Assembly: GCA_964464605.1 (NCBI GenBank)
Contig: CAYXJN010000005.1
Location: 248,001 to 312,000 of the forward strand
Source: an uncultured Ignavibacteriales bacterium
Lineage (GTDB): Bacteria > Zixibacteria > MSB-5A5 > GN15 > FEB-12
DNA: 64,000 nt
Direction of reading: 5' to 3'
Both the position numbers and the translations under genes were made by a program. Below the pieces are notes generated by a model. That model made no database searches. It was not told where the DNA came from and was given only the letters and a program-made list of their open reading frames with translations. Position 1 is the first letter of the stretch, and each line of letters starts with the position of its first letter. Positions 8,537 to 46,193 of this stretch are shown in pieces.

Positions 8537-8682
8537 CTCCGATTCTCCTTATATGCAATTTTTCATACGTATCTGCATCTATAGTAGATAACAAGCGCAT
8601 CCGATTCAAGGTTGTTGCGTGAAGATGAAAAGAAATTGTTATTACTATTTATGATGCTCACGAAATCATTACCAATTTGTAT

Positions 8683-9564: not shown

Positions 9565-9593
9565 TTAAAGGACAATGACCGTGCGGAGGGACC

Positions 9594-9860
9594 GTGGAGA
9601 TCACGGAAATACGAGTCACCTTGCGGGACGAGGAAAGACTCAAAGGATTCGCGAACGTGACGTTCGATCACGTCTTCGTTATTCGCGGGATGAAAATCAT
9701 CCAGGGTAACGATGGCTATTTTGTTGCGATGCCAAGCAGGAAACGTCCCGATGGCACCTATCAGGATATCGCGCACCCGGTAACTCCGGAAATGCGGCAA
9801 ACGATAGAAGAGAAAGTGCTCGCAGCTTACGAAGAAGAAGTCAAGGCAAACGCGAAATAA
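9594..9860 (+). CDS. spoVG: SpoVG family nucleic-acid-binding regulator
   Basis: MEITEIRV...FVAMPSRK...DIAHPV signature. Confidence 0.95.
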   Translation: MEITEIRVTLRDEERLKGFANVTFDHVFVIRGMKIIQGNDGYFVAMPSRKRPDGTYQDIAHPVTPEMRQTIEEKVLAAYEEEVKANAK

Positions 9861-30997: not shown

Positions 30998-31405
30998 TTA
31001 TTGCGAATCCGTCTTAATCGTGCTGGCTGCTTCTTTCAGCCATTTGAGCGCGTCGGCTTCGCTGTAGAACATCTGAATCTCAATAACACTGTCGTAGGCA
31101 TCATGCAGGACTTTGAAAATTCGCGCCGTGAAGTCTTTGTTGCTTTCGTCGTAAATAACCGCCCATTTGGAGTTTCCGGCGCGGTCCTGTATATCGAGCA
31201 CAAAATGGCGTAGGGCGTCGATATCTTTTAAATCCCAGTTAAATTTTCCGTCGGTGATGTCGCACAGCGTGTTCATTCCTTTTTCGAAACGGGGATCGAT
31301 AAGGATCTGGTTATGCAGCGCCATTTTTTCTGCTACTGTGATTTGACCGGTGTATTTCAAGGTGACGAGCTTGCGAGTAGTATCAATGTCATACGTGATA
31401 CTCAT
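30998..31405 (-). CDS. STAS/SEC14 (SpoIIAA-like) domain protein
   Basis: Characteristic ...KWAVI... and terminal F.SEADALKWL pattern. Confidence 0.65.
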   Translation of the reverse strand: MSITYDIDTTRKLVTLKYTGQITVAEKMALHNQILIDPRFEKGMNTLCDITDGKFNWDLKDIDALRHFVLDIQDRAGNSKWAVIYDESNKDFTARIFKVLHDAYDSVIEIQMFYSEADALKWLKEAASTIKTDSQ

Positions 31406-31452
31406 AGGGATAAATAGGGGTATTAAGTGGAGGGTGTCAAGAGGGAAAAGGA

Positions 31453-31974
31453 TTAGTATCCCCAGCCTAAGAGATGTCTTTCGCCGTATATACCTAACGT
31501 GATACCAAATGCTTTCTTATCATCAGGCCAGAAGCTTGAATTTCGAACATGTCCTTCCCAATCTTCGTGTTCTGTTTTAAATGTACCATACTGTTTTTTA
31601 TAAAATTGCTGAAGCGAGTTGTAGATGTTCCATCCCGCTGTACTATCCATGTTATCTAACCAAAAATAATAAGTATGTAAAGTATCGCGAATGATGTTGA
31701 ACTGTATTTTGGCTGTTCTGCCAAACAATGTGGTATGCCAATACGCTTCGAATTGTTCATGTTTTGTCATTGTCTCACTAATAGCCACTTGCTTAGTTAT
31801 CTCAGGTACTAACAATTGCAGTTTTTGATACGTTATTCCATGAGGAATTTTTTCGAATATTAATAGCTTTTCTTCGTCTGATTCTAATTTAAGAGCTTGA
31901 GTTAGACTTTCCTTGGCATCGCAGCCCACGAGACACGCGAAAAGAACCGATAACACAATCTTTTGTATTTTCAT
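31453..31974 (-). CDS. Hypothetical lipoprotein (AT-rich)
   Basis: MKIQKIVLSVLFACLVGC lipobox; ATG at 31974. Confidence 0.65.
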   Translation of the reverse strand: MKIQKIVLSVLFACLVGCDAKESLTQALKLESDEEKLLIFEKIPHGITYQKLQLLVPEITKQVAISETMTKHEQFEAYWHTTLFGRTAKIQFNIIRDTLHTYYFWLDNMDSTAGWNIYNSLQQFYKKQYGTFKTEHEDWEGHVRNSSFWPDDKKAFGITLGIYGERHLLGWGY

Positions 31975-32093
31975 GATTACCCCTTTGTTTCGTATTCCCA
32001 ATATATCTTAATATATAAAATCCGTCAATTCTTCTTATTCACCGACAACTCCCAATTTGCCCTATTCCCCGAAATTGAATATCATTAGCACCT

Positions 32094-32507
32094 ATGCGCC
32101 TGTCATTTCCCAAACGGATGGCTTCGTTGCCCGACCTCCTTGATTCAGTAACCGGTTTTCTTGAAGAACATAATGCCGATGAAGAAGCGACGTTTGCCAT
32201 TTCTCTGGGTGTCGATGAAATGTTCAGCAATTTCGTGCGGCATCAGTCAGTCGGAAAGCAGGATGTCGACATCGAATTGCGCGTTGAAAACGGCAGTGTC
32301 AAAGCGATTATGCAGGATCATGACGTCGAGGAGTATGATTTCACCAAGCAGGAACCGGCCGATATGGATGCCCTCGCCGCCGTCGCCAGCCCCGGCGGGA
32401 GGGGATTGTATTTAACCATGCAGCTCATGGATAATGTCGAGTATGCCTATGCCAATCGAACCTGCACAGTAACCCTTACCAAACGAATACGGAGTACCAG
32501 TGTTTGA
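32094..32507 (+). CDS. RsbW-like anti-sigma factor/serine kinase (HATPase_c)
   Basis: EMFSNFVRH N-box, D.D G1 region and GGRGLYL..LMD G2 box. Confidence 0.85.
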   Translation: MRLSFPKRMASLPDLLDSVTGFLEEHNADEEATFAISLGVDEMFSNFVRHQSVGKQDVDIELRVENGSVKAIMQDHDVEEYDFTKQEPADMDALAAVASPGGRGLYLTMQLMDNVEYAYANRTCTVTLTKRIRSTSV

Positions 32508-32784
32508 TATCAAACAATTAGACAATACGACCGTCGCGTTGTCCGGACGGTTCGATGCTTCTCAGGTAGATACCGCTGTCGCCTTTTTAAGCAAACTCAC
32601 CGAATCGACCACGCTCGATTTAAGCGCCCTCGATTATGTGTCGAGCGCCGGGTTGGGGGTGTTTATCACAGTGCACCATCAACTGCATAAAAAGGGGCTG
32701 AAGCTGACCCTCGTGAAGCCGAACAACCATGTCCGGCATGTTATCCATTTGTCCCGGCTGCATTTAGTTTTGCACTTGGAGTAA
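32500..32784 (+). CDS. STAS-domain anti-anti-sigma factor (RsbV-like)
   Basis: LSGRFD and DLSALDYVSSAGLG phospho-Ser motif; overlaps the kinase stop. Confidence 0.88.
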   Translation: MFDIKQLDNTTVALSGRFDASQVDTAVAFLSKLTESTTLDLSALDYVSSAGLGVFITVHHQLHKKGLKLTLVKPNNHVRHVIHLSRLHLVLHLE

Positions 32785-32997
32785 ACTGACCGGGCGTAAA
32801 ATGCCTTGCCGGAATGTTCATTTTTGCTCATGTTAGAAAAGAAAGAGGCGGGACGGTTTACGATGGTATCGGAAAGCTGCCCATCAGAGAGTCGAAAGTC
32901 ACTTTAACGTATTGTTGAACAGAAGATTACGAAACTTTCGGTAGCTTCCCGAATTCCGTTCTCCAAACGAAAATTATCAAAAGAATTTATGATTTCC

Positions 32998-33028
32998 TCA
33001 CCAACCTTTTCCCCTGTCACCGGTATGT
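32998..33028 (+). promoter_or_regulatory. Putative ECF sigma promoter, copy 1
   Basis: TCACCAAC-N14-CCGGTATGT; same motif and spacing as 34349-34379. Confidence 0.6.
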
Positions 33029-33580
33029 ATGCTTGAAAATGAAGATGCCGCGCTGGTAAATCGGTGTCTCGAGGGTGACACCAAGGCCTTCGGCACACTG
33101 GTAGATAAATACCAGAAACCGATTTTCAACGCGGCGCTCAGAATGTGCGGAAATTCCGATGATGCGAAGGATATCGCCCAGTCCACGTTTGTAAAGGCGT
33201 ACGAAAAACTTCGCGGATTCGACAGCAACGGAAAGTTTTTTAGCTGGATCTACCGGATTATGATGAACGAAACGATCGACTTCCTTGCCTACGTCCGTCG
33301 CCACACGACCGGTGTAGATGAGACTATCGAATCGCAGGAAGCGAGTCCGGAAGAGCAATACCAGAAAAAGCAGATGGCCGACAAGCTGGAAGATGAGATG
33401 ATGAATCTTTCAGTCGAATCACGCGCGGTTATCGTGCTTCGTCATTACGCAGACCTGTCGCTGGGGGAGATCAGCTACATACTGGATGTGCCTGAAAAGA
33501 CGGTGAAATCCCGTCTTTTCACGGCACGGGAAAAATTGAAAATCCGGCTGATACGCCGGGGAATGACAGAGAGTATATGA
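33029..33580 (+). CDS. ECF RNA polymerase sigma factor (SigW/RpoE-like)
   Basis: Region 2 (DAKDIAQSTF, FFSWIYRI) and region 4 (EISYILDVPEKTVKSRLFTAR). Confidence 0.95.
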   Translation: MLENEDAALVNRCLEGDTKAFGTLVDKYQKPIFNAALRMCGNSDDAKDIAQSTFVKAYEKLRGFDSNGKFFSWIYRIMMNETIDFLAYVRRHTTGVDETIESQEASPEEQYQKKQMADKLEDEMMNLSVESRAVIVLRHYADLSLGEISYILDVPEKTVKSRLFTAREKLKIRLIRRGMTESI

Positions 33581-34338
33581 TCGACCGGAGAATACAAGAA
33601 CTTGCCCATGGAGAACTGGATAACAGCAATACTCCGTCGGAAAGCCTCGAGTTAAAGCAGATCATCGCGTCAGACCCCAAAGTTGCTGCTTATGTTAAAG
33701 AGTTGCAAGAGCTCGAACGCGCATTCAAACGCACTGCCGCTGTTGAACCGCCGAAAGAGCTTAAAGCGGATATAATGGATCGCATCGCTGCCGTCAAAAC
33801 CGGTGTGCACAGCAAGCCGACCCCGATTTGGACATTGACGCGGGAAAAGCTGACCGTAAAGCAGACCTTTATGTTCGCCTCCGGTTTAGCCGCCGGGATG
33901 GCGCTGTTCTTCATATTCAGTTCCGGGGATATTTCGAATTTACAGGATGGAGCAAATTTGTACGGCACGCTCGCTTCACCGGCTGCCACACAGCAGTTCA
34001 AAACCGTTACCGAGCAGGAGATTCATGTCGGCACTGCCTCAGCCGAGGTGGTTACCCGGTTTGGTAATAACGTTGGACTGGTAGAAGTTTCCGTTGCAGA
34101 AAACGCTGACTTTGAACTGGGTGTCGAATTTGACCCGAATACGATGTCGTTTATCGGGTTCGGCCAAACGACGCCGTCCTCCAATGCGTTTACGTCAACA
34201 GATGGGACTATTCGCGTTGCTCATGCCGGAACCGGTCGGTACACCTTTCTTTTTGACGCCAAAGGAAACGCAGGAAATGTCACGATCCGTATCACCCAAA
34301 ACGGGGTTTCGGCGGTCAATTCTTTCCCTATAAAATAA
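33577..34338 (+). CDS. Single-pass membrane anti-sigma factor
   Basis: ATGA overlap with the sigma gene; N-terminal ASD-like helices (ELAHGELD...VEPP.EL), a TM helix, and a beta-rich periplasmic domain. Confidence 0.82.
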   Translation: MIDRRIQELAHGELDNSNTPSESLELKQIIASDPKVAAYVKELQELERAFKRTAAVEPPKELKADIMDRIAAVKTGVHSKPTPIWTLTREKLTVKQTFMFASGLAAGMALFFIFSSGDISNLQDGANLYGTLASPAATQQFKTVTEQEIHVGTASAEVVTRFGNNVGLVEVSVAENADFELGVEFDPNTMSFIGFGQTTPSSNAFTSTDGTIRVAHAGTGRYTFLFDAKGNAGNVTIRITQNGVSAVNSFPIK

Positions 34339-34348
34339 TTGCGAAACC

Positions 34349-34379
34349 TGACCAACTTTTCGGCCCGAAGCCGGTATGT
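34349..34379 (+). promoter_or_regulatory. Putative ECF sigma promoter, copy 2
   Basis: TGACCAAC-N14-CCGGTATGT upstream of the repeat-protein gene. Confidence 0.7.
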
Positions 34380-34447
34380 TGGCTGAAATAACAGAGAAAT
34401 TAGATAGAGCAGGATATATAACTCGCTAACGCGAACAATAGGAGGAT

Positions 34448-35365
34448 GTGATGCCTACAAATCCAACAAGAACGAGCGGTGGACGGGGAGTCCGTTTAAT
34501 CGCAGGCGCTGCCGGCCTTATCGCCGTTGTTTTGGTCGTTTTCTACGCAACCGGCTGGCCGCCGACCGGTGACAATGCGACCGGTACTATCGGTTCAGCT
34601 ACCAAATATCAGGCTGAACAGATTACCACGGGTGATGTTGATCTTGATAACCCGGAAATCGCCGCTATTTTGCAGAACGATCAGATTCAGGCGATCATGA
34701 AGGATGAAAATTTCCGCAAAGCCGTTCAGGATAAAAATTTCCGTGAAGCGATCATGAGCGTTGATTTCAGAAACGCAATCTTAGCTGAAGATTTTCGCGC
34801 CGCTATCGTGGTTCCGGAAGCGGTTGATGTGCTCGATGCTATCGACCAGCCGTTGTACAACGCGCTCGGTGATGAAGCGCTCCGCGCCGCCGTTGCCAGC
34901 GATGCAGTCGGCGATGCCTTTGCGAATGAAAATTTCCGTATGGCCGTTCAGGATGAAAACTTCCGCAATGCGTTTCCGAAGCTGATCGATGATCACGAAA
35001 AACTGGCCTCGATGAACGAAAACTTCCGCAAAGCGGTTCAGGATAAGAATTTCTTACGAGCCGTTCAGGATAAGAACTTCCGCAAGGCTGTTCAGGATCA
35101 GAATTTCCGTAACGCGATGGCGAATGAAACATTCCGCAAAGCCGTTCAAGACAAGAATTTCCGCAAGGCGGTTCAGGATAAGAACTTCATGCGCGCTCTG
35201 AACAACGATGCATTCCGCAAAGCAGTCCAAGATAAGAATTTCCGCAAGGCAGTTCAGGATAAGAATTTCCGTATGGCCATCACCAGCGAAGCATTCCGCA
35301 AAGCGCTGGCTTCGGATGCTTTCCGCGGCGCATTGAACAGCGAAGCGTTCCGCGCCAGATACTAA
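34448..35365 (+). CDS. Membrane-anchored tandem nonapeptide-repeat protein (unknown function)
   Basis: AGGAGG RBS (ATG at 34451 likely); N-terminal TM; repeats of (Q)DKNFRKAV type. Confidence 0.88.
   Translation: MMPTNPTRTSGGRGVRLIAGAAGLIAVVLVVFYATGWPPTGDNATGTIGSATKYQAEQITTGDVDLDNPEIAAILQNDQIQAIMKDENFRKAVQDKNFREAIMSVDFRNAILAEDFRAAIVVPEAVDVLDAIDQPLYNALGDEALRAAVASDAVGDAFANENFRMAVQDENFRNAFPKLIDDHEKLASMNENFRKAVQDKNFLRAVQDKNFRKAVQDQNFRNAMANETFRKAVQDKNFRKAVQDKNFMRALNNDAFRKAVQDKNFRKAVQDKNFRMAITSEAFRKALASDAFRGALNSEAFRARY
35012..35362 (+). repeat. Coding tandem repeat, 13 x 27 bp (9 aa)
   Basis: From MNENFRKAV to NSEAFRARY, 351 bp in exact register; DNA unit approximately CAGGATAAGAATTTCCGCAAGGCNGTT. 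Confidence 0.92.
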
Positions 35366-35410
35366 GAGTCCAATTTTGATGTGAGGTAGAGCCTCACTGA
35401 TGAGAGCCCA

Positions 35411-35453
35411 CCGGGATGTTACAGGAAAACTGTGGCATCCCGGCCTTTTTTTT
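35411..35453 (+). terminator. Strong intrinsic terminator after repeat-protein gene
   Basis: 14-bp stem CCGGGATGTTACAG/CTGTGGCATCCCGG followed by T8. Confidence 0.88.
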
Positions 35454-35466
35454 GATTTATTTTCCA

Positions 35467-38427
35467 ATGCCCAATCGGTACTCCCGTCATACCCGACTGC
35501 ATCTCTTTCGCACATTCATTTTCCTGAGTGTGCTGCTTTGCGCTGTATCAGCGAATGCCCGGTTTTCCAAGATTGAAACAAAAAATCTCAGGCTTATTTA
35601 TTACGGGGGAGCGCAGGCATATTTGGGATCGCACGTCGCCCGCTGTTTTGAAAATTCACTCGCTTTTCACCGCAAACTATTCGGCTATGACCAGACTGAA
35701 AAGACAACGCTCATTCTGCAGGATTTCGGCGATTACGGCAACGCCGGGGCGGGAGTGCTGCCGTGGAATCATATCTCGTTGGATATCGCTCCCTACAACT
35801 ACGCATTCGAAACCTCTCCGGCCAACGAACGGATGAACTCGACGATGAATCATGAACTGGTTCATATTGTCGCCTCCAATCAAACGGCGGGTTCGGATCG
35901 TTTTTTCCGCACGATCTTTGGCGGCAAGGTGTATGAAGTCGCCGATGACCCTGCGACGATTCTCTATGCCTATCTCACCACTCCGCGCCGTTCGGCGCCG
36001 CGCTGGTATCATGAAGGAATAGCGGTTTTTCTTGAAACCTGGATGGCGGGTGGATTGGGAAGAGCGCTTGGCGCATACGATGAAATGGTGTTTCGAACCA
36101 AAGTATGCGACAGTGCCCCATTTTATGATCGTATCGGTTTGGAATCGGAGGGAGTGGCAGTCGATTTTCAAGCGGGAGTGAATTCCTATTTGTACGGTAC
36201 CCGTTTTATGACCTATCTCGCGCTTATGTATGGTCCGGAAAAACTGATCGATTGGGTGAAACGAACGGATGGTACCGCTGCATTTTACGGCACCCAGTTC
36301 AGCCGGGTGTATGGTCTCTCGATGGATAAAGCATGGACAGACTGGATTGCGTATGAGCATCAGTTTCAGACGGAAAATCTCAAAACGATTCGGCAGTATC
36401 CGGTAACGGAAGCGCGCTTAATTCCCTGCCGTCCGCTTGGATCACTGTCGCGCGCCTATTATGACAGTGCGAACGGGGTTATTTATGCGGCAATGTATTA
36501 TCCCGGAGAACATGCCTATGTCGGCGCGATTAACACGGCGACAGGAAAAATCAAAAAACTCTGCGATGTCAAAGGTCCGGCGATGTTTTATGTCTCATCG
36601 GTTACGTATGATCCGGAAAGCGGTACGCTGTTTTATACAGCTGATAATAATGAGATGCGGGATTTGTGCGCGGTAGATGTAAAATCCGGTAAGCAGAGGA
36701 TGCTGATGAAAGATGAGCGGGTCGGTGATTTGGCTTTCAGTCAAGCGGACAAATCGATCTGGGGGGTGCGGCATTTTAACGGGATATCCACATTGGTGCG
36801 GGTTGCTGAGCCGTATAATAGCTGGAAACAGATTTATTCGTTCCCGTATGGTCTTGATTTGTATGATATCGATGTTGCACCTGATGGTAAAACATTGGTC
36901 GGGTCATTGTCGGAAATCAGCGGACGGCAGTCGCTGGTCAGTATGGATATCGATGCCTTACTTGCCGGCGATACGACCTATACAACTCTGTACGATTTCC
37001 AGAATTCAATTCCCGAAAATTTTACCTATTCGCAGGATGGTAAATATATTTGGGGTTCCTCCTGCTACAGCGGCGTATCGAATATCTTCCGGTACGATTT
37101 CGAAACGAAAGCGATGGGTGCCTTCAGCAATGCCGAAACCGGGCTTTTCCGTCCGATGCCGCTTTCAGCGGATTCGCTGTTAGTGTTTCGCTACAGCGGC
37201 TCTGGGTTTCGCCCGGCGGTCATTCAGTTAAAAGAAATTTTCGATGTTGCGCCGATTACTTATCTCGGTCAAACGACAGTGGAAAAGCATCCGATTTTAA
37301 AAAACTGGATCGCCCCCTCTCCGTCTACTGTCCAACTTGATTCAGCCACTACCGAGCGCGGCGAATTTAATCCGATCACCTCGATTCGCCCCTGTTCAAT
37401 GTACCCGATCGTTCAGGGATACAAAGAGTACACGGCAATAGGGATGTTGATGAATTTCTCCAGTCCAATCGGGCTGCCGAAAGCGGATGTATCGGTCAGT
37501 TATTCACCGGGAAATGAGAAAAACAAAGATGAGCAGTTCCACGCTAAAGCGAGTTACACCTGGTTGAACTGGACATTCGATGCCAACTACAACGCCGCCG
37601 ATTTTTATGATCTCTTCGGTCCGACTAAAACGAGCCGGAAGGGAACATCGGGGGGAGTTACCTATAAGCGGTCACTCATTTATGATGAACCGCACACGAT
37701 GGATTTGGCATTGGGAATACGGGGCTACACCGGACTTGAACGGTTACCGGCGTATCAGAATGTGGTGACATCGTTCGATAAATTTCTTTCGTTTACGGCG
37801 AATCTAAAAAACCAATACCTGAAATCGTCGATTGGCGCAGTGGATCACGAGGATGGCTACCGCTGGCAGTTGACCAGTTCGAATCAATATGTGAACGAAC
37901 ATCTCTTCACCCGTATGTCGGCAGATTTTGATTATGGTATTTCGCTGCCGATTCCACATTCCTCTTTTTGGCTGCGTGCCTCGGCCGGATATTCGCCAAA
38001 CGACAGGGACGAGCCGCTCGCGAATTTCTTTTTTGGCGGGTTTGGCAATAATTGGGTCGATTATCAAACTGAAAAACGGTATCGCCTCAATTACAGTTTC
38101 CCCGGTGTCGGGATTGATGCCTTGGGCGGCAACAATTATGTTCGCGCTATGGCTGAATGGACATTGCCGCCGCTTCGTTTCAAACGTTTGGGTTCACCGA
38201 CCTTTTATTGCACCTGGGTGCGGGCAGCTTTGTTCACGGCCGCGCTGCAAACGAATGTGGATGATGCTGCAACACGCACAACCACGGCCGATGTCGGCGG
38301 GCAGGTTGACTTTCGGATGGCACTGCTTTCGCATTTGAAGATAACCCTGTCGTTCGGATATGCGTACGCGTTCCATGAATTCGATAAACCGACTCATGAA
38401 CGCATGATATCATTGAAGCTTTTGTGA
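35467..38427 (+). CDS. Exported/outer-membrane protein: HExxH zinc peptidase + TolB-like beta-propeller + putative beta-barrel
   Basis: Signal peptide from ATG 35467; NHELVH and PRWYHEGIA gluzincin motifs; propeller repeats (VAPDGK, YSQDGK, GVSNIF); aromatic amphipathic strands at the C-terminus. Confidence 0.78.
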   Translation: MPNRYSRHTRLHLFRTFIFLSVLLCAVSANARFSKIETKNLRLIYYGGAQAYLGSHVARCFENSLAFHRKLFGYDQTEKTTLILQDFGDYGNAGAGVLPWNHISLDIAPYNYAFETSPANERMNSTMNHELVHIVASNQTAGSDRFFRTIFGGKVYEVADDPATILYAYLTTPRRSAPRWYHEGIAVFLETWMAGGLGRALGAYDEMVFRTKVCDSAPFYDRIGLESEGVAVDFQAGVNSYLYGTRFMTYLALMYGPEKLIDWVKRTDGTAAFYGTQFSRVYGLSMDKAWTDWIAYEHQFQTENLKTIRQYPVTEARLIPCRPLGSLSRAYYDSANGVIYAAMYYPGEHAYVGAINTATGKIKKLCDVKGPAMFYVSSVTYDPESGTLFYTADNNEMRDLCAVDVKSGKQRMLMKDERVGDLAFSQADKSIWGVRHFNGISTLVRVAEPYNSWKQIYSFPYGLDLYDIDVAPDGKTLVGSLSEISGRQSLVSMDIDALLAGDTTYTTLYDFQNSIPENFTYSQDGKYIWGSSCYSGVSNIFRYDFETKAMGAFSNAETGLFRPMPLSADSLLVFRYSGSGFRPAVIQLKEIFDVAPITYLGQTTVEKHPILKNWIAPSPSTVQLDSATTERGEFNPITSIRPCSMYPIVQGYKEYTAIGMLMNFSSPIGLPKADVSVSYSPGNEKNKDEQFHAKASYTWLNWTFDANYNAADFYDLFGPTKTSRKGTSGGVTYKRSLIYDEPHTMDLALGIRGYTGLERLPAYQNVVTSFDKFLSFTANLKNQYLKSSIGAVDHEDGYRWQLTSSNQYVNEHLFTRMSADFDYGISLPIPHSSFWLRASAGYSPNDRDEPLANFFFGGFGNNWVDYQTEKRYRLNYSFPGVGIDALGGNNYVRAMAEWTLPPLRFKRLGSPTFYCTWVRAALFTAALQTNVDDAATRTTTADVGGQVDFRMALLSHLKITLSFGYAYAFHEFDKPTHERMISLKLL

Positions 38428-39446
38428 TACTGCTGAAACTTGTTTTGGGGTTAGTGCCGGTTTTTATCTTCCTGGCATCGTTGGTTTATTTGGACAGTTA
38501 CAAACTGGTCACGCTGCGCACGACGATTATGACCATTCTGGTCGGTTGCGTGGTGGCGGGAATCTGTTTAGCGATTAACAGTTCGCTCCTGCCGGTCATG
38601 GCCGGTGATACGAAAACATATTCCCGGTTTATCGCGCCGCTAATCGAGGAAACGCTCAAAGGGGTATATATATTATATCTTGTTTATTCACGACGGGTCG
38701 GATTTATGGTCGATGCCGCTGTAACCGGATTCGCCCTCGGTGCCGGGTTCGCGTTTATTGAAAATATTTATTTCCTCTACAACCTGCCGGATTCGAATCT
38801 TGCCTTGTGGTTTGTGCGTGGGTGCGGCACGGCAGCGATGCACGGCGGTACAACCGCGATGGTCGGTATACTGTCCAAAGTCTATTTCGATCGAAATCCG
38901 TCGAAATATTTTGTCGTCATTTTGTCCGGACTTACTCCGGCTGTCGTACTGCATTCCTTGTTCAATCATTTTATTTTGCCGCCGCTTTGGAGTACGCTTG
39001 CTATCCTGGCGGTTTTTCCGGTTTTGCTTGTGGTGGTGTTCGATCAAAGTGAAAAGGCGACGCGGGAATGGCTCGGTGAAGGGTTGGATGCCGATATGGA
39101 ATTACTTGATCTGATTTTGACCGGCAAGATTTCGGAAACGCGAGTCGGACAATACTTAGAATCCTTGCGCGACAAATTTGAGCCGACAGTGGTAGCCGAT
39201 ATGCTTTGTCTCTTGCGACTGCATGCCGAGCTTGCGTTGCAGGCAAAAGGGATGCTCTTGTCACAGCAGGCTGGATTAACTATCTCCCGTGATCCAGAAT
39301 TAGAAGCAAAGTTATCGGAAATGAATTATTTGGAAAAATCGATCGGCAAAACCGGCAAACTGGCGATTCATCCGTTTTTGAGCGGCGGTACACGGGAAAT
39401 TTTCCAGATCAAACTGCTTTTGAGCCAGCAGGAGAAGAAAGCGTAG
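38424..39446 (+). CDS. prsW: PrsW family intramembrane glutamic protease with C-terminal extension
   Basis: EETLK, GFAFIEN, AMHG and HSLFN motifs; GTGA overlap with the upstream gene. Confidence 0.88.
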   Translation: MILLKLVLGLVPVFIFLASLVYLDSYKLVTLRTTIMTILVGCVVAGICLAINSSLLPVMAGDTKTYSRFIAPLIEETLKGVYILYLVYSRRVGFMVDAAVTGFALGAGFAFIENIYFLYNLPDSNLALWFVRGCGTAAMHGGTTAMVGILSKVYFDRNPSKYFVVILSGLTPAVVLHSLFNHFILPPLWSTLAILAVFPVLLVVVFDQSEKATREWLGEGLDADMELLDLILTGKISETRVGQYLESLRDKFEPTVVADMLCLLRLHAELALQAKGMLLSQQAGLTISRDPELEAKLSEMNYLEKSIGKTGKLAIHPFLSGGTREIFQIKLLLSQQEKKA

Positions 39447-39447
39447 T

Positions 39448-40665
39448 ATGCGCGTGGCCGTTGTTGGTGGTGGGGCCGCTGGGTTTTTTGGCGCGCTTTC
39501 GGCAGCCAAGCACTTCCCTAAAAGCAAGATTACTATTTTCGAATCAACAAATGAACCGCTCGACAAAGTGCGTATCTCCGGCGGCGGAAGGTGCAATGTC
39601 ACCCACAACTGCATGGTACCGTCGGAATTGGTGAAAAACTATCCACGCGGATACAAAGAGCTGCTCGGACCGTTTTATACCTTTCAGCCGAAAGATACAA
39701 TTAATTGGTTTGCGGAACGGGGCGTGAAGCTGAAAGCAGAGAAGGATGGGCGGATGTTTCCGATAACCGATAGCTCATCCACTATTATCGATTGTCTTAT
39801 CAATGCCGTCGAAGATGCTGACATCACGCTCCGATTGAATACTCTCGTCAAAAAGATAACGCGGGAAACATCCTCGTTCACAATAGAATTACACGAAGCG
39901 CCGAGTGAAACGCTCGATAAAGTATTGATAACGACCGGCAGCAGCCATCAGGGATATCGCTTCGCGCAGTCGCTGGGACATACGATTGTGCCGTGTGTGC
40001 CCTCTTTGTTTACCTTCAAGATATCTGATTTACGGTTGAATGATTTGAGCGGCATCAGTTTTGAGCAGGTGCATCTTACTTTGAGTGATGGCGGAACCAA
40101 ACTGCTTGAACAGCGCGGGCCGATGTTGGTCACGCACTGGGGATTAAGCGGCCCCGCGATTTTGAAATTGTCGGCTTGGGGGGCAAGGATGCTCCATGAG
40201 CGAAAGTATCATGCCGATTTATTCGTCAATTTCATTCCCGATAATACATCCGAAGAAGTGCTCCAACGCATGCGCATGTTCAAAGATCAACATGGCCGCA
40301 AACGGGTGATGACTGACAGCCCGTTCGATTTGCCAAAACGGTTCTGGGGGCGGATAGTCGACTATGTCGAAATTCCGGAAACCTGCTTATGGTCTGCTAT
40401 CAAGAAAGAGCAGCTTGCCGCTTTGTGTGAACAGCTAACGCATGCCAAATTTGCTGTCATCGGTAAGGGAATTTTCAAAGAGGAATTTGTCACCTGCGGG
40501 GGAGTGCCGCTTAACGAAGTCGACTTTCGCACCATGCAAAGCAAAATCTGTCCCGGTTTGTATTTCGCAGGAGAGGTGCTCGATATCGACGGTATCACCG
40601 GCGGATTCAATTTTCAAAGCGCTTGGACAACCGGCTGGATAGCCGGAAAAAGTATCGGACTCTAA
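39448..40665 (+). CDS. HI0933/BaiN/YhiN family flavoprotein
   Basis: GGGAAG, ISGGGRCNVT, THWGLSGP, VTCGG and GGFNFQ motifs. Confidence 0.93.
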   Translation: MRVAVVGGGAAGFFGALSAAKHFPKSKITIFESTNEPLDKVRISGGGRCNVTHNCMVPSELVKNYPRGYKELLGPFYTFQPKDTINWFAERGVKLKAEKDGRMFPITDSSSTIIDCLINAVEDADITLRLNTLVKKITRETSSFTIELHEAPSETLDKVLITTGSSHQGYRFAQSLGHTIVPCVPSLFTFKISDLRLNDLSGISFEQVHLTLSDGGTKLLEQRGPMLVTHWGLSGPAILKLSAWGARMLHERKYHADLFVNFIPDNTSEEVLQRMRMFKDQHGRKRVMTDSPFDLPKRFWGRIVDYVEIPETCLWSAIKKEQLAALCEQLTHAKFAVIGKGIFKEEFVTCGGVPLNEVDFRTMQSKICPGLYFAGEVLDIDGITGGFNFQSAWTTGWIAGKSIGL

Positions 40666-40738
40666 TAGCGAACTTGCCAATCTTATCCCTATTCGCTACT
40701 ATTTGTGAAAGGAATTGAACGATCACGTAGGGAGAAGT

Positions 40739-43700
40739 ATGCGATCGCTTTGGCAGTTTTTTACCCGTCATAGAGTTCTCGGCGCAATAACCGTATCAGC
40801 ATGTGTCCTGGCCTGCTGGGCATCAATCGGCCTTTTGGCTCAGGGAGGCAAAAGCGGCCCAAATCTGAAAGTCAAAGTCGACAAATTCGAACCCGAAGGG
40901 GAAACGCATCCAGCGACGAACATAACGGTCACCTTTTCTGACAATTTGGTACCATCCGACACTATCGACAAACCGACCAACAACCATCCTCTGAAATTCG
41001 ATCCGCCGATTTCCGGCTATGCGCGATGGATTGCACCGAACACACTCCGCTACTTTCCCGATGAACAGCTTCGCCCTGCTACAGTCTACACGGCCAGCAT
41101 AAGCACCTCCGGTTCATACTTGAGCGGAAACCGTATCGATGAAAAGCGTACATTCAAATTCGGAACCGCACGGCTTGGTATCAGCAGCAATAACTGGTAC
41201 ACCCAGGCTGATCCGGAACAGCCGAAGATGGTTCGTATTTACGGTTACCTCAGTTTCAATTACGAAGTGTTTTCCGAAAGCCTGCGGGACAAGTTACGCA
41301 TCAAAGGGAAAACCGATGCTGCGGTTGGGGACGTCCAGTTTGATATCATGAGTGATGAGATGTCGGCGGAAGATGGCACGATGTCGGTTCCGGCCTATCG
41401 CTCGTATTTTACAATTGTTTCCGCGCCGATTCCGATTGAAAAAGCAAAACAGGAATATCAGGTGCGTATTGCCCCCGGTCTTTCCTGCCGCCAGTGCGGT
41501 GAGGATTTGCAAATGGATTTCGTGACAACGGTTACGGTCGCGGAACGCCAGCCGCTGGTGGTTCGGCATGTGACATCGGTTTCGGAAGCGAAACGATCTT
41601 CCATCTATATTGAACTCTCACAGCGTGTGCTGCTGGAAAGCGCAAAATCGAAAATTACGGTCTCACCGGCTGTTGATTTTCGTATCGATGCTGAATGGCA
41701 GCAATTGATTCTTCGCGGTGATTTTTTGCCGGGGCAGAGTTACACCGTTACCATTGCTTCCGGTATTCAGGCGCTAAACGGCGGCGAGCTTGAGCGTGAG
41801 TTCTCCACGACCGTTACGATACGGGACTTGGAGCCATCGCTATCATTTGCCGCGCAAGGTGTCTATCTCCCAAAACAGGGCGCAAAATTATTAGAAATTG
41901 AAACGGTCAATGTCGATACGCTGTTAGTTGAGGTGAAACGCATCTTTGCGAATAACATTGTCTATGCGCTTTCATCTGGGCTCGACCAGCCCGATTATTG
42001 GGGGGAATCGAATTTTTCTTCTGTCGGTAAAGATTTTTTTGCAAAAGAAAAGCAGCTCGACTATGTAAAAAACCGGGCGCTGGTTACAACGGTTGACTTG
42101 GGTGCGATTATCGGCGACAGCACACAGGGTATTTACAAGGTCTACGCGCGCGATAAACAGCGGCGCTGGCAAAATGAAAGTCGGATGACGCTCTTGACCG
42201 ATATCGGTATTTCGGCACGGTTGGGTGAAGATTACCTGATGGTCTGGGTCAATTCATTGACCAATGTCGCTCCCATTTCCGGCGCGACAGTTACGCTGTT
42301 AAGTAAAAATAATCAAACCCTTGCCACGGGTAAAACCAACAATAAGGGTGTGCTGGCGATAAATCATATCAAAGATAAGCTCACCGGTTTCGAGCCCTAT
42401 CTTATTCTGGTAGAAAACAAAAATGATCTCGGTTATCTCCGCTTTGTCGATTGCCAGCTTTCGACGGAAAATTTCGATACGGATGGCCGTTCCTATTTAG
42501 TGAGCGGTTACGAAGCGTTCTTATATACCGACCGCGGTGTCTATCGCCCCGGGGACACGCTACATCTTGGTTCAATTGTTCGTGGTCGCAACAGTACAGT
42601 ACCGGAAGAGTTTCCGTACACGATTACCCTCTATGATCCGACCGGCGCGACATTCACGACTATTCGCACCAACACCAAGGGTGGGGCATTCTTTACCGAG
42701 TCGATTGCGCTGCCGAGTTTTTCGCGAACAGGGAAGTATCGCATAGTCGCGCAAATCGGCGAGGACAAAGTTATCGGCTCAATTGAAGTGCAGATCGAAG
42801 AATTTGTACCGGATAAAATAGCAGTTGATATCAAAACCGATCGGCAGGCATACAAGCAAGGGGATACGGTTCGTATCGATGTGCAAAGTAAATATCTATT
42901 TGGCCCTCCGGCAAAAGGACATACTGCAACCGGTGCGATTCGCTTGGAGCAACTGCTTTTTGCTCCGGCGAAATACAAAGATTTTACGTTTACCGATGGC
43001 TCCCGTCAGTTCGCACCCTTTACCAGTCAGTTATCGCAAGGGATGCTCAGTGATTCCGGAACGTATCGTTTCAATTATCCTTTGTCGACCGGTTTAATGC
43101 CTCCTTCTTCATTGAAAGGATTAGTTTCAGTTTCAGTCAGCGAACAGGGAGGAAGAGCAGTCAGCGATTACACCGAAATCGTACTGCATCCGTACACGCG
43201 CTATATAGGGGTGCGAACTGAGTTAAACGGATATGCTGATCCGGGTGTTGCGATGAGCGCGAAAATTATCGCAGTCGATCCGGATGGGAACGCAACAACG
43301 GCATCATCTGTGAAAGTAGTTTGCTATCAGGAAGTGTGGGAAACTATTCTGCGAATGGATAAACGGAATCGCTACTCATACGTTTCCGAAAAGAAAATGG
43401 TACCGCTTGATTCGCAGACCATATCGGTACCGGCCGCAGGAACCTCGGTTTCCTTTACGCCGCCGAATTACGGCAGCTACCGCATTGTCGCGACGGATAT
43501 TGAGCAGAAGCATACGACATCGACATCATTCTACGCTTCCGGATGGGGGTATGCGCCGTGGGCGATGGAGTCTCCGGAGCGAATTGAAGTCGACTTAGAC
43601 AAAAAGGAATACGCTGTTGGTGAAAAAGCCTCTGTTCAGGTTCGTGCGCCGTTCGGTGGAACGCTGCTGTTGACCGTCGAAAAGGATCAGGTGCTTGAGT

Positions 43701-46189
43701 ATATCCGTGTTGAAATGAAAGAAAACACGGCAACCATTCCGCTTACAGTCAAAGCGGATTGGTTCCCGAATGCGTACATAACGGTGACCGTTATTAAAAA
43801 CGCGGCAAATATCACACCGAAAGCACCGGCTCGCGCCTTTGGCGTTGCTCCGGTGATGGTTAAAAATCCGAAGAAGATTTTACCGATGACAGTCAAAGCG
43901 CCGGAAGTGGTTACCTCCCGCAGCAAGCTTTCCGTGCAAGTTAATGCCGGAACACCGGGAGTCAGTACGATTACCGTCGCCGCAGTCGATGTCGGCATTA
44001 CCCGATTGACCGATTTCAAGAAACCGGATCCGGTCACGTTTTTCTACGGCAAACGGGGAATGACGCTCAAAATGTACGATCTGTACTCTTTTATTTTCCC
44101 GGAAGTGCCTCGTTCAGGCAGTAATCTAACACCGGGTGGTGACAGGATGTTCGCGATGGCACGGCTGAAACATTTGAATCCAATCACCAGCGCACGCCGG
44201 ATAAAATCAGTTGCGCTTTGGTCGGGTAAAGTTACGACCGACAAAGCTGGGATTGCGACTGTTACGTTTGATGTTCCTGATTTCAGCGGTGCGCTGGCCG
44301 TGATGGTGGTCGGTGTGCAGGGGGATAAATTCGGTTCTGCCGAAACGGAAGTCATTGTTCGCGACAAAATCGTCGTGCAGGAAAGTTTCCCGCGCTTTAT
44401 TGCTCCCAATGATCGCGCCGACGGTTTAATAACGGTGTTCAACAACACTGGACAACAGAAAGATATTACTGTTTCGCTCAAACTCAACGGCCAGGCACGG
44501 TTGATATCAGCTGCGGAACAGACAGTAACGGTGCCCAATGATGCAGAACACTCGGTTCGATTCTCATTCACCGGACTCGAAGCTCCCGGTGTTGTTTCGT
44601 TCAATGTTACTGCAACCGACGGAGAAAACAGATCGCAAATCAGTTTTGAATTGCCCAACCGTCCCCCGCAGCCATTGAAAACGATCTTTGGTTCCGGAGT
44701 GGTTACGGCAACAGAGCCGGCAAATTTCACGCTACCGTCTGACTGGATCGCTGGAACGGATGAGTACATTGTACGAACTTCGTCACTGTCATCCGTTGCA
44801 CTGAGCAAGAATCTGGAATTTTTAGTGCGGTATCCGTATGGCTGTTTGGAGCAGACAACTTCGCAGGTCTTTCCACTGCTCTATTTTTCATCACTCGCAA
44901 AGTTTCTTGATCCAAAACTGACCAATTCGAAAGGACCGGAGTACTTTGTTCAGGAGGGAATCGCGAAAATTCAGAACCTGATGCTGCCGGATGGCTCATT
45001 AGCGTATTGGGAAGGGGCGCGGCAGGAACATCCCTGGTCAACAGTGTATGCATCCCATTTTATTCTCGAAGCCAAAAACGCCGGATATAGTGTCGATGAA
45101 AAGTTCAGCAAAAAAATCGAGGAACGCTTAAAGCAGATTGCGTCCGGCAATACCGGAAACACCAATTTTTCGACACGGGTTTATGCAGCATATGCGCTCT
45201 CAGCGCGGGGATTGCTTGAACAAAAAGTGCTGAATGGGTTGAAGGCAATCGCCATCGATTCCCTGCCGCCGTATTCACGCTATCAGTTTGCCGGCATATT
45301 GTTGGCAGCCGGTGATCGTGAAGGAGCGCGAGCGCTAATTCCGACACAAATTCAACCGGAAACATTCGAACCGGAAACCGGCGGTAATTTCAATTCCGGT
45401 GTTCGCACCGACGCAATTTTGCTTACGGTGCTGAATAGTCTTGAACCACAAAGCCCGTCATGCGCGGTACTCGCTAAATCATTGATGGATCAGGCGACGG
45501 TCAATCGCTGGTACACCACACAGGAAAATGCATTCGGGCTTATGGCGCTTGGGAAATATCTCAAAGGACAACCGGCTGTAAACTTCACCGGAAAGCTCTC
45601 AATCGCCGGAGATACGGTGCTAACATTCGGCGTTGCTGATTTCAAAGTAAACCGGAAACGAATCGGTGGAAAATCAGTTTCTCTTTCTCTTACCGGAACC
45701 GGCCCAGCATACTATTACTGGCAGGCGAGTGGTGTTCCAACCGGTACGAAAATCGAAGAGTTTTCACGAGGAATCGTTTTGCAGCGGCAATATCTGAATG
45801 CAGATGGTCAGCCGTTGAATTTAGACTCAGTGCAGGTTGGCGCACAGATTATCTGCAAGATAACCGCGACCGCAAAAGATCAGATCTTATATAATGTGTG
45901 TATCAATGACCTGTTGCCTGCCGGACTTGAAATCGAAAATCCGCGCTTGCAAACAACACCGCGACTTGCTTGGCTGCCTGCCAATAAAGGATCGATTCAA
46001 AATCAGGATATGCGGGATGACCGTTTCCTGTTGTTCGCGACGTTAACGCCGGGACAAACCCTGGAATTTCATTACAGTCTTCGCGCAGTCTCGACCGGTG
46101 CGTTTACAATTCCACCGATTGCCGCTGAGTGCATGTACAACCCGCTGATCGCCGCGAGCGCATCATCCGGAGCGATAACAATCAGGTAG
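40739..46189 (+). CDS. Bacterial alpha-2-macroglobulin (YfhM-like)
   Basis: TDRGVYRPGD, intact thioester YPYGCLEQ, TTQE, DLLPAGLE and AECMY motifs; ATG at 40739. Confidence 0.95.
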   Translation: MRSLWQFFTRHRVLGAITVSACVLACWASIGLLAQGGKSGPNLKVKVDKFEPEGETHPATNITVTFSDNLVPSDTIDKPTNNHPLKFDPPISGYARWIAPNTLRYFPDEQLRPATVYTASISTSGSYLSGNRIDEKRTFKFGTARLGISSNNWYTQADPEQPKMVRIYGYLSFNYEVFSESLRDKLRIKGKTDAAVGDVQFDIMSDEMSAEDGTMSVPAYRSYFTIVSAPIPIEKAKQEYQVRIAPGLSCRQCGEDLQMDFVTTVTVAERQPLVVRHVTSVSEAKRSSIYIELSQRVLLESAKSKITVSPAVDFRIDAEWQQLILRGDFLPGQSYTVTIASGIQALNGGELEREFSTTVTIRDLEPSLSFAAQGVYLPKQGAKLLEIETVNVDTLLVEVKRIFANNIVYALSSGLDQPDYWGESNFSSVGKDFFAKEKQLDYVKNRALVTTVDLGAIIGDSTQGIYKVYARDKQRRWQNESRMTLLTDIGISARLGEDYLMVWVNSLTNVAPISGATVTLLSKNNQTLATGKTNNKGVLAINHIKDKLTGFEPYLILVENKNDLGYLRFVDCQLSTENFDTDGRSYLVSGYEAFLYTDRGVYRPGDTLHLGSIVRGRNSTVPEEFPYTITLYDPTGATFTTIRTNTKGGAFFTESIALPSFSRTGKYRIVAQIGEDKVIGSIEVQIEEFVPDKIAVDIKTDRQAYKQGDTVRIDVQSKYLFGPPAKGHTATGAIRLEQLLFAPAKYKDFTFTDGSRQFAPFTSQLSQGMLSDSGTYRFNYPLSTGLMPPSSLKGLVSVSVSEQGGRAVSDYTEIVLHPYTRYIGVRTELNGYADPGVAMSAKIIAVDPDGNATTASSVKVVCYQEVWETILRMDKRNRYSYVSEKKMVPLDSQTISVPAAGTSVSFTPPNYGSYRIVATDIEQKHTTSTSFYASGWGYAPWAMESPERIEVDLDKKEYAVGEKASVQVRAPFGGTLLLTVEKDQVLEYIRVEMKENTATIPLTVKADWFPNAYITVTVIKNAANITPKAPARAFGVAPVMVKNPKKILPMTVKAPEVVTSRSKLSVQVNAGTPGVSTITVAAVDVGITRLTDFKKPDPVTFFYGKRGMTLKMYDLYSFIFPEVPRSGSNLTPGGDRMFAMARLKHLNPITSARRIKSVALWSGKVTTDKAGIATVTFDVPDFSGALAVMVVGVQGDKFGSAETEVIVRDKIVVQESFPRFIAPNDRADGLITVFNNTGQQKDITVSLKLNGQARLISAAEQTVTVPNDAEHSVRFSFTGLEAPGVVSFNVTATDGENRSQISFELPNRPPQPLKTIFGSGVVTATEPANFTLPSDWIAGTDEYIVRTSSLSSVALSKNLEFLVRYPYGCLEQTTSQVFPLLYFSSLAKFLDPKLTNSKGPEYFVQEGIAKIQNLMLPDGSLAYWEGARQEHPWSTVYASHFILEAKNAGYSVDEKFSKKIEERLKQIASGNTGNTNFSTRVYAAYALSARGLLEQKVLNGLKAIAIDSLPPYSRYQFAGILLAAGDREGARALIPTQIQPETFEPETGGNFNSGVRTDAILLTVLNSLEPQSPSCAVLAKSLMDQATVNRWYTTQENAFGLMALGKYLKGQPAVNFTGKLSIAGDTVLTFGVADFKVNRKRIGGKSVSLSLTGTGPAYYYWQASGVPTGTKIEEFSRGIVLQRQYLNADGQPLNLDSVQVGAQIICKITATAKDQILYNVCINDLLPAGLEIENPRLQTTPRLAWLPANKGSIQNQDMRDDRFLLFATLTPGQTLEFHYSLRAVSTGAFTIPPIAAECMYNPLIAASASSGAITIR

Positions 46190-46193
46190 AAGC

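Follow-up and report, generated by a model that had tools for sequence, protein, structure and literature searches.

A 64,000-nucleotide (nt) window of contig CAYXJN010000005.1 (positions 248,001 to 312,000) was analyzed, and the coordinates given below are positions in this window unless another contig is named. Open reading frame (ORF) listing and translation identified seven genes at 32094-39446, all on the plus strand and with three overlapping junctions (8, 4, and 4 nt), encoding an RsbW-like kinase (kinase), a STAS protein (STAS), a sigma factor of the extracytoplasmic function (ECF) type (ecf), an anti-sigma factor (anti), a repeat protein (rep), a large outer-membrane protein (big), and a PrsW-family protease (prsW) (Table 1). 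An earlier note on this DNA had read the co-oriented genes, their overlaps, and a twice-used promoter motif as a candidate trans-envelope signaling system, and each of these features was found in place. The seven genes are one real set, a single copy of a widespread and conserved ECF-sigma envelope-signaling cassette, and the always-kept core of this cassette is rep-big-prsW.

Table 1. Genes and regulatory features of the cassette, with positions in the 64,000-nt window
Feature	Position	Strand	Remarks
RsbW-like GHKL serine kinase/anti-sigma-type protein (kinase), 137 amino acids (aa)	32094..32507	+	HATPase_c_2
STAS anti-sigma-antagonist-like protein (STAS), 94 aa	32500..32784	+	8-nt overlap with kinase gene
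ECF-type promoter motif P1, CCAAC-N16-GGTATGT	33001..33028	+	Ends 1 nt before sigma start codon
ECF (group 4) sigma factor (ecf), 183 aa, SigW/RpoE-like	33029..33580	+	Sigma70 domains
Single-pass anti-sigma factor (anti), 253 aa	33577..34338	+	4-nt overlap with ecf
Promoter motif P2, second CCAAC-N16-GGTATGT copy	34352..34379	+	About 70 nt 5' of repeat-protein gene
N-terminally anchored repeat protein (rep)	34448..35365, likely start ATG 34451	+	18 nonapeptide units, NFRKAVQDK type
Intrinsic-terminator-like hairpin and T8	35411..35453	+	14-bp stem, 8 G-C pairs, between rep and big
Large secreted outer-membrane protein (big), 986 aa	35467..38427	+	Gluzincin, propeller, and barrel model
PrsW-family intramembrane protease (prsW), 340 aa	38424..39446	+	4-nt overlap with big

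One genome per species was scanned for relatives of big, with 143 relatives confirmed and 80 loci fetched, and the neighboring genes were identified by tblastn with the window proteins. The 80 loci span at least 10 phylum labels in the record titles, including Bacteroidota, Ignavibacteria, "Chlorobiaceae," KSB1/Zhuqueibacter, Zixibacteria, Calditrichaceae, Acidobacteriota (Thermoanaerobaculia and Aminicenantes), Gemmatimonadota, Eisenbacteria, Marinimicrobia, Delongbacteria, and a few others. prsW was located directly 3' of big in 71 of the 76 loci having at least 1.1 kb of downstream sequence, with the other 5 loci carrying it upstream of ecf (3 loci) or missing it (2 loci). Among the 49 loci having at least 4.2 kb upstream, ecf was present in 44 and STAS in 43 (35 on the same strand and 8 on the opposite strand), and the kinase was matched in 32; rep was matched in 34 and the anti-sigma factor in 24, both with an insensitive tblastn query. 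In four relatives the contigs, over the length that they cover, show the unchanged order ecf-anti-rep-big-prsW. The earlier note had staked its proposal on synteny in other genomes and had asked for a neighborhood search with big and PrsW; the gene order recurs, and the two genes are co-conserved with repeat-protein, ECF, and STAS genes across phyla.

When big and PrsW were searched separately, they were found in the identical 5 of 41 related genomes, and in the home genome, from which the window derives, the cassette prsW is the only PrsW-family gene. That rep, big, and prsW behave as one unit in gain, retention, and loss is strongly supported. Relatives of big in genomes of the same family were 53% to 54% identical to it, the best database match, bearing a Zixibacteria label, was 62% identical, and many matches from other phyla were 55% to 57% identical. 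The patchy presence among relatives together with this flat identity suggests either horizontal movement of the cassette or saturation.

Family assignment was based on Pfam and NCBIfam models against their cut-offs. rep and big matched no Pfam or NCBIfam family above cut-off, the NCBIfam equivalog models of RsbW, SigW, RpoE, and PrsW all scored the window proteins far below cut-off, and Rfam returned no family within 31400-40800. The kinase matched HATPase_c_2 over its full length (64 bits against 27.4, E 1.7e-17), with the RsbW equivalog models reaching 28 to 29 bits against cut-offs of 145 to 155. Across 27 kinase orthologs, E42, N46 (N-box), and G104 were invariant, and D75, G101, and G102 were at least 90% conserved, with the N-box and G2 box kept. 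The STAS protein matched PF01740 (47.7 bits against 22.6) and STAS_2 (47.1 bits), fell just under the cut-off of TIGR00377 (53.4 against 53.45), and carries a serine, Ser49 of a Y-x-S-S-A-G-L stretch, that was invariant in 32 orthologs. A phosphatase with GAF and PP2C domains (GAF-PP2C) flanks the cassette in 18 of the 41 loci with room on both sides, and in about 4 more with overlapping edges, either before the kinase gene or right after prsW. In the home genome, GAF-PP2C is not adjacent to the cassette, and PP2C paralogs are encoded on contigs C10, C3, and C6. A second partner-switch set was observed on contig C6 (155521-158168), in which a kinase paralog of 28% identity lies beside a GAF-PP2C-like gene.

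The sigma factor was identified by Sigma70_r2 (56.2 bits, cut-off 24), Sigma70_r4_2 (41 bits, cut-off 25.7), and Sigma70_ECF (above cut-off), along with TIGR02937 (107 bits against 42.9). Among the equivalog models, all below cut-off, SigW scored best (129 bits against 209), and RpoE reached 113 bits against 236. The anti-sigma factor consists of a cytoplasmic anti-sigma domain, one transmembrane (TM) helix, a juxtamembrane G-T-L motif, and a beta-rich periplasmic domain. This agrees with the class I transmembrane layout, with a gene directly after the sigma gene, an N-terminal domain, and one hydrophobic segment. Residues 20-147 matched NF052375, "anti-sigma factor," at E 3.4e-8, with 33.8 bits against a cut-off of 100. 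No ZAS-type HxxxCxxC His/Cys motif was present in the N-terminal 90 residues as read from the translation, and the periplasmic domain gave only sub-threshold Pfam matches, to CsgH and Invasin_D3. A G[TSA][ILMV] motif occurs 9 to 17 residues after the TM helix (2 residues after it in one) in 23 of 26 separate anti-sigma factors, whereas control windows gave it in 10 of 76 and shuffling gave 3.6 on average. The sigma factor and the single-pass anti-sigma factor are strongly supported as a translationally coupled pair.

The nonapeptide repeats read by the earlier note in the protein encoded next, rep, were confirmed, with Tandem Repeats Finder returning a period of 27 and 9.2 copies and a regular expression returning 18 xxF[RLM]xA-type units in a 9-residue register. 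Ahead of its repeats, rep has a short cytoplasmic tail, a TM helix, and a juxtamembrane GTIG...Q-I-T-x-x-D-V-x-L motif. Among the related loci, 46 include enough upstream sequence to show the gene preceding big, and in these its product has a single TM helix near the N-terminus, followed in this family by (Y)PxP, 5 to 7 residues, G-T-I-G, and a Q-I-T-D-x-D-V-x-L stretch. An alignment of 47 rep N-terminal regions showed G45 and G48 to be invariant and T46 and D62 to be at least 90% conserved. The repeat unit varies by lineage, with phenylalanine 9-mers as in the window, LE[KR]xxx-type 6-mers, 10-mers, G-K-E-G-L-S units, and long coiled-coil-like stretches. Within the rep array of the window (34969-35182), contigs from a DNA-type run that contains the locus showed two discordant joints, one jumping over 152 bases and the other stepping back by 162 bases, a sign that either the number of repeats varies in the population or the assembly is ambiguous here.

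In 15 of the 46 loci, and likely in 4 more, the anti-sigma N-domain and the TM helix, motif, and repeats of rep form a single ORF that begins at the end of ecf. Because the two are fused in at least 15 of 46 loci and both carry the juxtamembrane G-T-hydrophobic motif, rep is best seen as the ectodomain half of the family's anti-sigma factor, detached here and placed under a second promoter.

The promoter motif CCAAC-N16-GGTATGT had 3 matches in the 2.8-Mb home genome, 2 of them in the cassette, and the reversed control pattern had 1 match. In related loci, the ecf start codon is immediately preceded by CCAACTTTT-N12-TGTAnTT. A looser regular expression identified 75 matches in 1.22 Mb of related loci and 20 in the 2.8-Mb home genome. 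Of the 75, 36 coincided with the ecf start, 26 preceded rep or the fused gene (23 upstream of rep or between ecf and big and 3 labeled up_anti), and 13 were classed as "other," of which 7 (L016, L020, L042, L045, L050, L051, and L075) lie just upstream of ecf genes whose ORFs were called too long. In each of the three fused loci inspected (L055, L063, and L070), a single promoter match was present. The cassette motif was not among the motif strings searched in a portion of the Casas-Pastor 2021 supplement. Autoregulation of the ecf-anti unit from P1 is strongly supported, and since P1 abuts the sigma start codon, the ecf-anti mRNA is probably leaderless. The earlier note had proposed that the sigma factor induces the repeat-protein gene, and this is very probable, because the autoregulatory motif of the sigma factor recurs upstream of rep both here (P2) and in related loci. 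A further good match to the motif was observed on the minus strand of home-genome contig C1 (40429-40456), 22 nt 5' of a phosphoglucosamine/phosphomanno-mutase-like gene, which would make that gene a candidate additional member of the regulon, with a possible link to the supply of envelope precursors.

Between rep and big lies a hairpin (35411-35443) with a 14-bp stem, followed by T8. The intergenic sequence folds at -36.6 kcal/mol (z -4.08), with none of 200 shuffles as stable, and 23 of 45 related loci have a hairpin with a T-run in the corresponding position; the hairpin is a probable attenuator. Given this terminator-like hairpin and the lack of room for a promoter before 35467, big and prsW are most simply expressed by read-through, at a level below that of rep, and they sit behind the terminator within the sigma-dependent rep unit. 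The mechanical ORF start of big, at 35416, falls inside the hairpin, and the start at 35467 is therefore preferred; it yields a typical signal peptide as read from the translation, and the first 30 residues of the structure model form a lone low-confidence helix. A Shine-Dalgarno sequence fits the rep ATG at 34451. Two metatranscriptome contigs identical to the window were found, for 33187-33381 in ecf (0 differences) and for 34414-34753 at the 5' end of rep; kinase, STAS, anti, big, and prsW had no cover, which carries no weight as evidence. Such RNA-library contigs give neither level nor ends and may include DNA carry-over, and they are compatible with expression as weak evidence.

The big protein was divided in its AlphaFold2 model (predicted local distance difference test [pLDDT] 89, predicted template modeling score 0.87) into a signal peptide, a gluzincin-like domain at approximately residues 33-308, a TolB-like propeller at approximately 313-590, and a 16-strand barrel at approximately 641-985. 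In 44 aligned homologs, 44% to 62% identical to the window protein, H129, E130, and H133 of the HExxH motif (129-133) and E183 were invariant. Whole-model structure searches (Foldseek, VIA) were dominated by propellers, and the N-domain was folded alone (pLDDT 84.3); its top structural matches were almost exclusively gluzincins of the MA clan, including lugdulysin (M30; Z 15.2, 231 residues aligned), M1 aminopeptidases (Z 13-14), M9 collagenase (Z 11.9), and thermolysin (M4; Z 10.5), with Foldseek returning M1 and M61 members at E 1.5e-4 to 5e-3. The N-domain is accordingly a predicted MA-clan gluzincin with a putative zinc site. By sequence, big matched no Pfam peptidase family and no Pfam family at all, and searches with the big sequence and with a profile of its N-domain returned nothing meaningful from PDB sequences. 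A precomputed Pfam tag on one big homolog (P0096) was not reproduced on rescanning.

Residues 313-590 of big form a six-bladed propeller in the model (TolB Z 22.7; NHL and SMP30 folds Z 21-23), and DSSP assigned 16 long strands to 641-985. The barrel superposed on BamA of D. radiodurans (8xnb_B) with Z 19.5 and a root-mean-square deviation of 4.1 over 290 aligned residues, this being the only barrel among the 50 matches listed. A 47-residue loop (843-889) between strands 11 and 12 lies where L6 would be and contains the invariant stretch G-G-F-G-N-N-W-V-D-Y, with G857, G860, N861, N862, W863, and D865 invariant. The L6 motif of Omp85 proteins is VRGY/F, and the motif of the big loop differs from it. 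By sequence, no match to PF01103 was identified in big, Omp85_2 reached 17.7 bits against 23.1 (E 0.0025), and no POTRA domain is present, with the gluzincin and propeller preceding the barrel in the model. The earlier note had read the protein as an outer-membrane zinc peptidase/propeller that would sense or generate a signal: the models contain the HExxH gluzincin, the propeller, and the outer-membrane barrel, the sensing or signal-generating role being putative.

A word-index search scored 8,000 candidates, of which at least 5,363 were relatives of big at E <= 0.001, and every source name among the 120 relatives listed was "hypothetical protein." In the portions of their paper covered here, Heinz and Lithgow 2014 (PMC4104836) defined a "WD40-like" Omp85 subfamily, giving no function, no gene context, and no link to PrsW or sigma factors, and the supplement lists for each member template matches to a BamA/TamA barrel, a TolB propeller, and an aminopeptidase or collagenase. 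big has the same three-part, POTRA-less architecture, and we liken it to this subfamily, as described in those portions of PMC4104836, by architecture. The architecture of big was catalogued in 2014 and is hence not new to print.

The earlier note's identification of PrsW holds, with PF13367 matched at 84.3 bits against 23.5 (E 1e-23; residues 32-203 covering model positions 4-195 of 196) and with E75, E76, and K79 (EExxK), H140, and H177 and N181 (HxxxN) invariant in 41 cassette sequences. These EExxK, H, and HxxxN motifs are presumably those of B. subtilis PrsW. The core is followed by a C-terminal domain of approximately 135 aa, which, in the best 150 of 452 representative clusters inspected, was confined to the C-termini of PrsW-like proteins of approximately 335 aa and to fragments. 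This domain matched no Pfam family and gave an uninformative best score of 0.79 in the ESM Atlas, and P0177, a longer protein (568 aa) carrying it, had no extra Pfam domain. A crude hydropathy count gave 7 or 8 helices, and the membrane side on which the C-domain lies depends on which. A single complex prediction of PrsW with the rep N-terminal region (TM helix and motif), with alignments as input and no controls, gave scores of 0.48, 0.15, and 0.18 against a mark of 0.32 and weighs on neither side of the question of binding. A site-2 protease of the RseP-type M50 family is encoded elsewhere in the genome. According to the portions of Zhang et al. 2012 (PMC3482391) covered here, PrsW domains fused to intracellular sensor domains are likely signaling peptidases that cleave on a sensed signal. 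The cassette PrsW resembles these in having a core with an added C-terminal domain and differs from those described in the same portions of PMC3482391 in that the added domain has no Pfam match and is confined to its own subfamily.

The best explanation of the cassette, and one that we regard as moderately probable, is regulated proteolysis in which PrsW and the outer-membrane peptidase would act on the ectodomains of the anti-sigma factor and rep, both anchored in the membrane, as substrates. The Omp85-like big would hold its gluzincin and TolB-like propeller in the periplasm and would engage or trim the distal repeat tail or beta domain, PrsW would make the membrane-proximal site-1 cut at or near the shared juxtamembrane motif, and the RseP-type M50 protease encoded elsewhere would release the sigma factor. 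The sigma factor would then induce rep strongly and the two proteases weakly, and free rep, as a competitor for the proteases, would add negative feedback to what is otherwise a positive loop. The kinase/STAS pair, along with a GAF-PP2C encoded elsewhere, would provide a cytoplasmic phospho-switch input whose target may be the sigma factor or the PrsW C-domain. The cascade was called self-contained in the earlier note, and that part of the proposal does not stand, with the site-2 protease encoded elsewhere and no GAF-PP2C adjacent here.

Several observations weigh against regulated proteolysis as set out above. PrsW scored 34.8 bits against 225 with NF033739, the equivalog model of B. subtilis PrsW, and orthology is unsupported. 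The hypervariability of the repeats is hard to reconcile with their specific recognition by a protein that is approximately 50% identical across phyla. All 80 loci were found through one protein and are kin, and the counts overstate their independence. In 4 loci (L053, L056, L077, and L078), the upstream DNA examined contains no ECF gene ahead of rep-big-prsW: in L053 the trio is accompanied by GAF-PP2C, kinase, and STAS, L078 has STAS beside it, L077 has the trio alone, and L056 (Delongbacteria label) carries three tandem rep paralogs before big-prsW at 7515-9637, with no ECF gene nearby. A possible fifth ECF-less locus, L016, is ambiguous in status. Because these four loci hold the trio, rep-big-prsW can work, or at least persist, without a neighboring sigma gene. 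Finally, the placement of big-prsW in the transcription unit of the sigma factor itself is as compatible with an output role as with an input role.

Such an output role is the substance of the alternative that survives best, a possible though on the whole unlikely one, in which rep-big-prsW would be the effector operon of the sigma factor, forming an envelope quality-control or surface-protein module. PrsW would process anchored rep, the Omp85-like big would degrade rep, assemble it, or move it to the surface, and the anti-sigma factor would be inactivated otherwise, for example by another site-1 protease or a partner switch. The sigma-type promoter upstream of rep-big-prsW is consistent with this, as are the ECF-less trios, including the one with three tandem rep paralogs. 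Omp85 relatives assemble or translocate proteins, and in the portions of their paper covered here, Heinz and Lithgow liken the WD40-like subfamily to a fusion of BamA and BamB (PMC4104836); likewise, PrsW domains are proposed as processing and export peptidases in the portions of Zhang et al. 2012 covered (PMC3482391). However, in the fused loci the rep ectodomain is part of the anti-sigma polypeptide, and processing there must act on the anti-sigma factor. The separate anti-sigma factors retain the same juxtamembrane motif, and the genome has no PrsW-family gene other than that of the cassette, and both points also weigh against this alternative.

A physical trans-envelope tripwire is a more speculative idea that we consider rather doubtful. 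The inner-membrane-anchored repeat rod of the anti-sigma factor or rep would span the periplasm into or through the Omp85-like barrel, with the gluzincin and propeller of big holding or clipping the rod, and loss of the tether would expose the juxtamembrane GTIG to PrsW and fire the sigma factor. Triggers could be outer-membrane damage, an altered inter-membrane distance, or an assault on a tail exposed at the surface. On this view, the repeats would be hypervariable because an exposed or length-setting element is under pressure to diversify, and the unique C-terminal domain of PrsW would be the point at which the partner switch gates the protease.

Rather doubtful as well is a scheme in which the partner switch is the real control, with the RsbW-like protein sequestering the ECF sigma factor or the cytoplasmic domain of PrsW until freed by dephosphorylated STAS, and with the membrane anti-sigma factor and proteases merely tuning the response. 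Most loci have the kinase and STAS genes with the cassette, the catalytic and phospho-acceptor residues of both proteins are conserved, GAF-PP2C flanks many loci, and PrsW carries its conserved extra C-terminal domain; moreover, L053 keeps PP2C, kinase, and STAS beside rep-big-prsW in the absence of an ECF gene. Against these points, the sigma factor already has a translationally coupled membrane anti-sigma factor, and 17 of the 49 loci gave no kinase match with the window query. The sigma factors that RsbW-type proteins are known to bind belong to group 3 and not to the ECFs, which also counts against this scheme. That the genes are neighbors by chance or shared ancestry and not one functional unit is scarcely credible, since, however related the loci reached through a single protein may be, the order is kept across the phylum labels, the presence and absence of big and PrsW match strictly in the 41 relatives, and the genes are joined by overlapping junctions, a shared promoter, and fusions.

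The genes flanking the cassette were also inspected. An HI0933-like FAD flavoprotein gene (39448-40665; TIGR00275, 434 bits) begins 1 nt past the prsW stop and is probably co-transcribed with prsW in this genome, and it adjoins the cassette in none of the 80 related loci. At 40715-48530, a 1824-aa ORF that reads like a bacterial alpha-2-macroglobulin is followed by a 778-aa ORF resembling a PBP1C-type transglycosylase/transpeptidase, both named from their translations. The pairing of alpha-2-macroglobulin and PBP1C genes is known. None of these three genes 3' of prsW was a conserved neighbor in the related loci. Just upstream and divergent, on the minus strand at 30998-32001, are a 135-aa ORF and a 182-aa ORF with a lipoprotein-like N-terminus, which had no Pfam or NCBIfam match and are not conserved beside the cassette.

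The earlier note had not recognized the combination as a described system. The literature search returned no paper describing the cassette or its working, none linking PrsW with an Omp85 or WD40 protein, and none relevantly linking it with RsbW/STAS, and to this extent the judgment stands, with the qualification that the architecture of big had been catalogued before. The main text of Casas-Pastor 2021 mentions neither PrsW, STAS, nor RsbW, and the portion of its supplement searched mentions PrsW just for the Firmicutes groups ECF30 and ECF227, with further mentions possible in later group descriptions. We read this widespread and entirely uncharacterized cassette as a form of ECF/anti-sigma regulated proteolysis to which an outer-membrane partner not described before, a repeat ectodomain, and a partner switch would have been joined. 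Here, PrsW is tied to an uncharacterized Omp85-family peptidase/propeller protein, an anti-sigma factor with a hypervariable tail, and a phospho-switch, in an arrangement that recurs in Bacteroidota/Ignavibacteria, Chlorobi-like lineages, KSB1, Zixibacteria, Calditrichota, Acidobacteriota, Gemmatimonadota, Eisenbacteria, Marinimicrobia, and others. Solving the cassette would give a function to a catalogued but orphan Omp85 subfamily, would reveal how many little-studied phyla report on their envelope, and would yield a compact, orthogonal sigma/anti-sigma/protease switch with a defined promoter.

Parts of the cassette can be set beside known systems. As in RsbU/RsbV/RsbW and SpoIIE/SpoIIAA/SpoIIAB, a small GHKL kinase and a STAS protein with a conserved serine are encoded beside a sigma gene, with GAF-PP2C in many related loci; unlike in those systems, the neighboring sigma factor is an ECF with a membrane anti-sigma factor, and the phosphatase is not adjacent here. 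The ECF gene btrS of Bordetella, with btrU/W/V, represents a comparable partner switch. In FecA-FecR-FecI and in E. coli sigma-E/RseA/DegS/RseP, an outer-membrane or periplasmic event is relayed through a single-pass anti-sigma factor to an ECF sigma factor by sequential proteolysis. As in the FecA type, the cassette sets the gene of an outer-membrane barrel protein beside those of the sigma and anti-sigma factors, but this barrel is BamA-like, with 16 strands and with a peptidase and a propeller, and is not a 22-strand TonB-dependent transducer; a Pfam scan of the seven cassette proteins identified no TonB-dependent receptor, FecR, RseB, or DegS-like domain.

PrsW-dependent release of an ECF sigma factor has so far been a Gram-positive paradigm, and we know of no PrsW pathway worked out for a diderm cell. 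With the sigma-W/RsiW/PrsW/RasP system of B. subtilis, the cassette shares an ECF sigma factor with an adjacent single-pass anti-sigma factor, a PrsW with intact motifs, and an available M50 protease, and the SigW models were the best-scoring NCBIfam equivalogs for the cassette sigma factor, below cut-off. In contrast to sigma-W, the cassette resides in a diderm host, its prsW lies inside the operon of the sigma factor and encodes an extra C-domain, and the cassette adds an outer-membrane peptidase-barrel, a repeat ectodomain, and a partner-switch pair.

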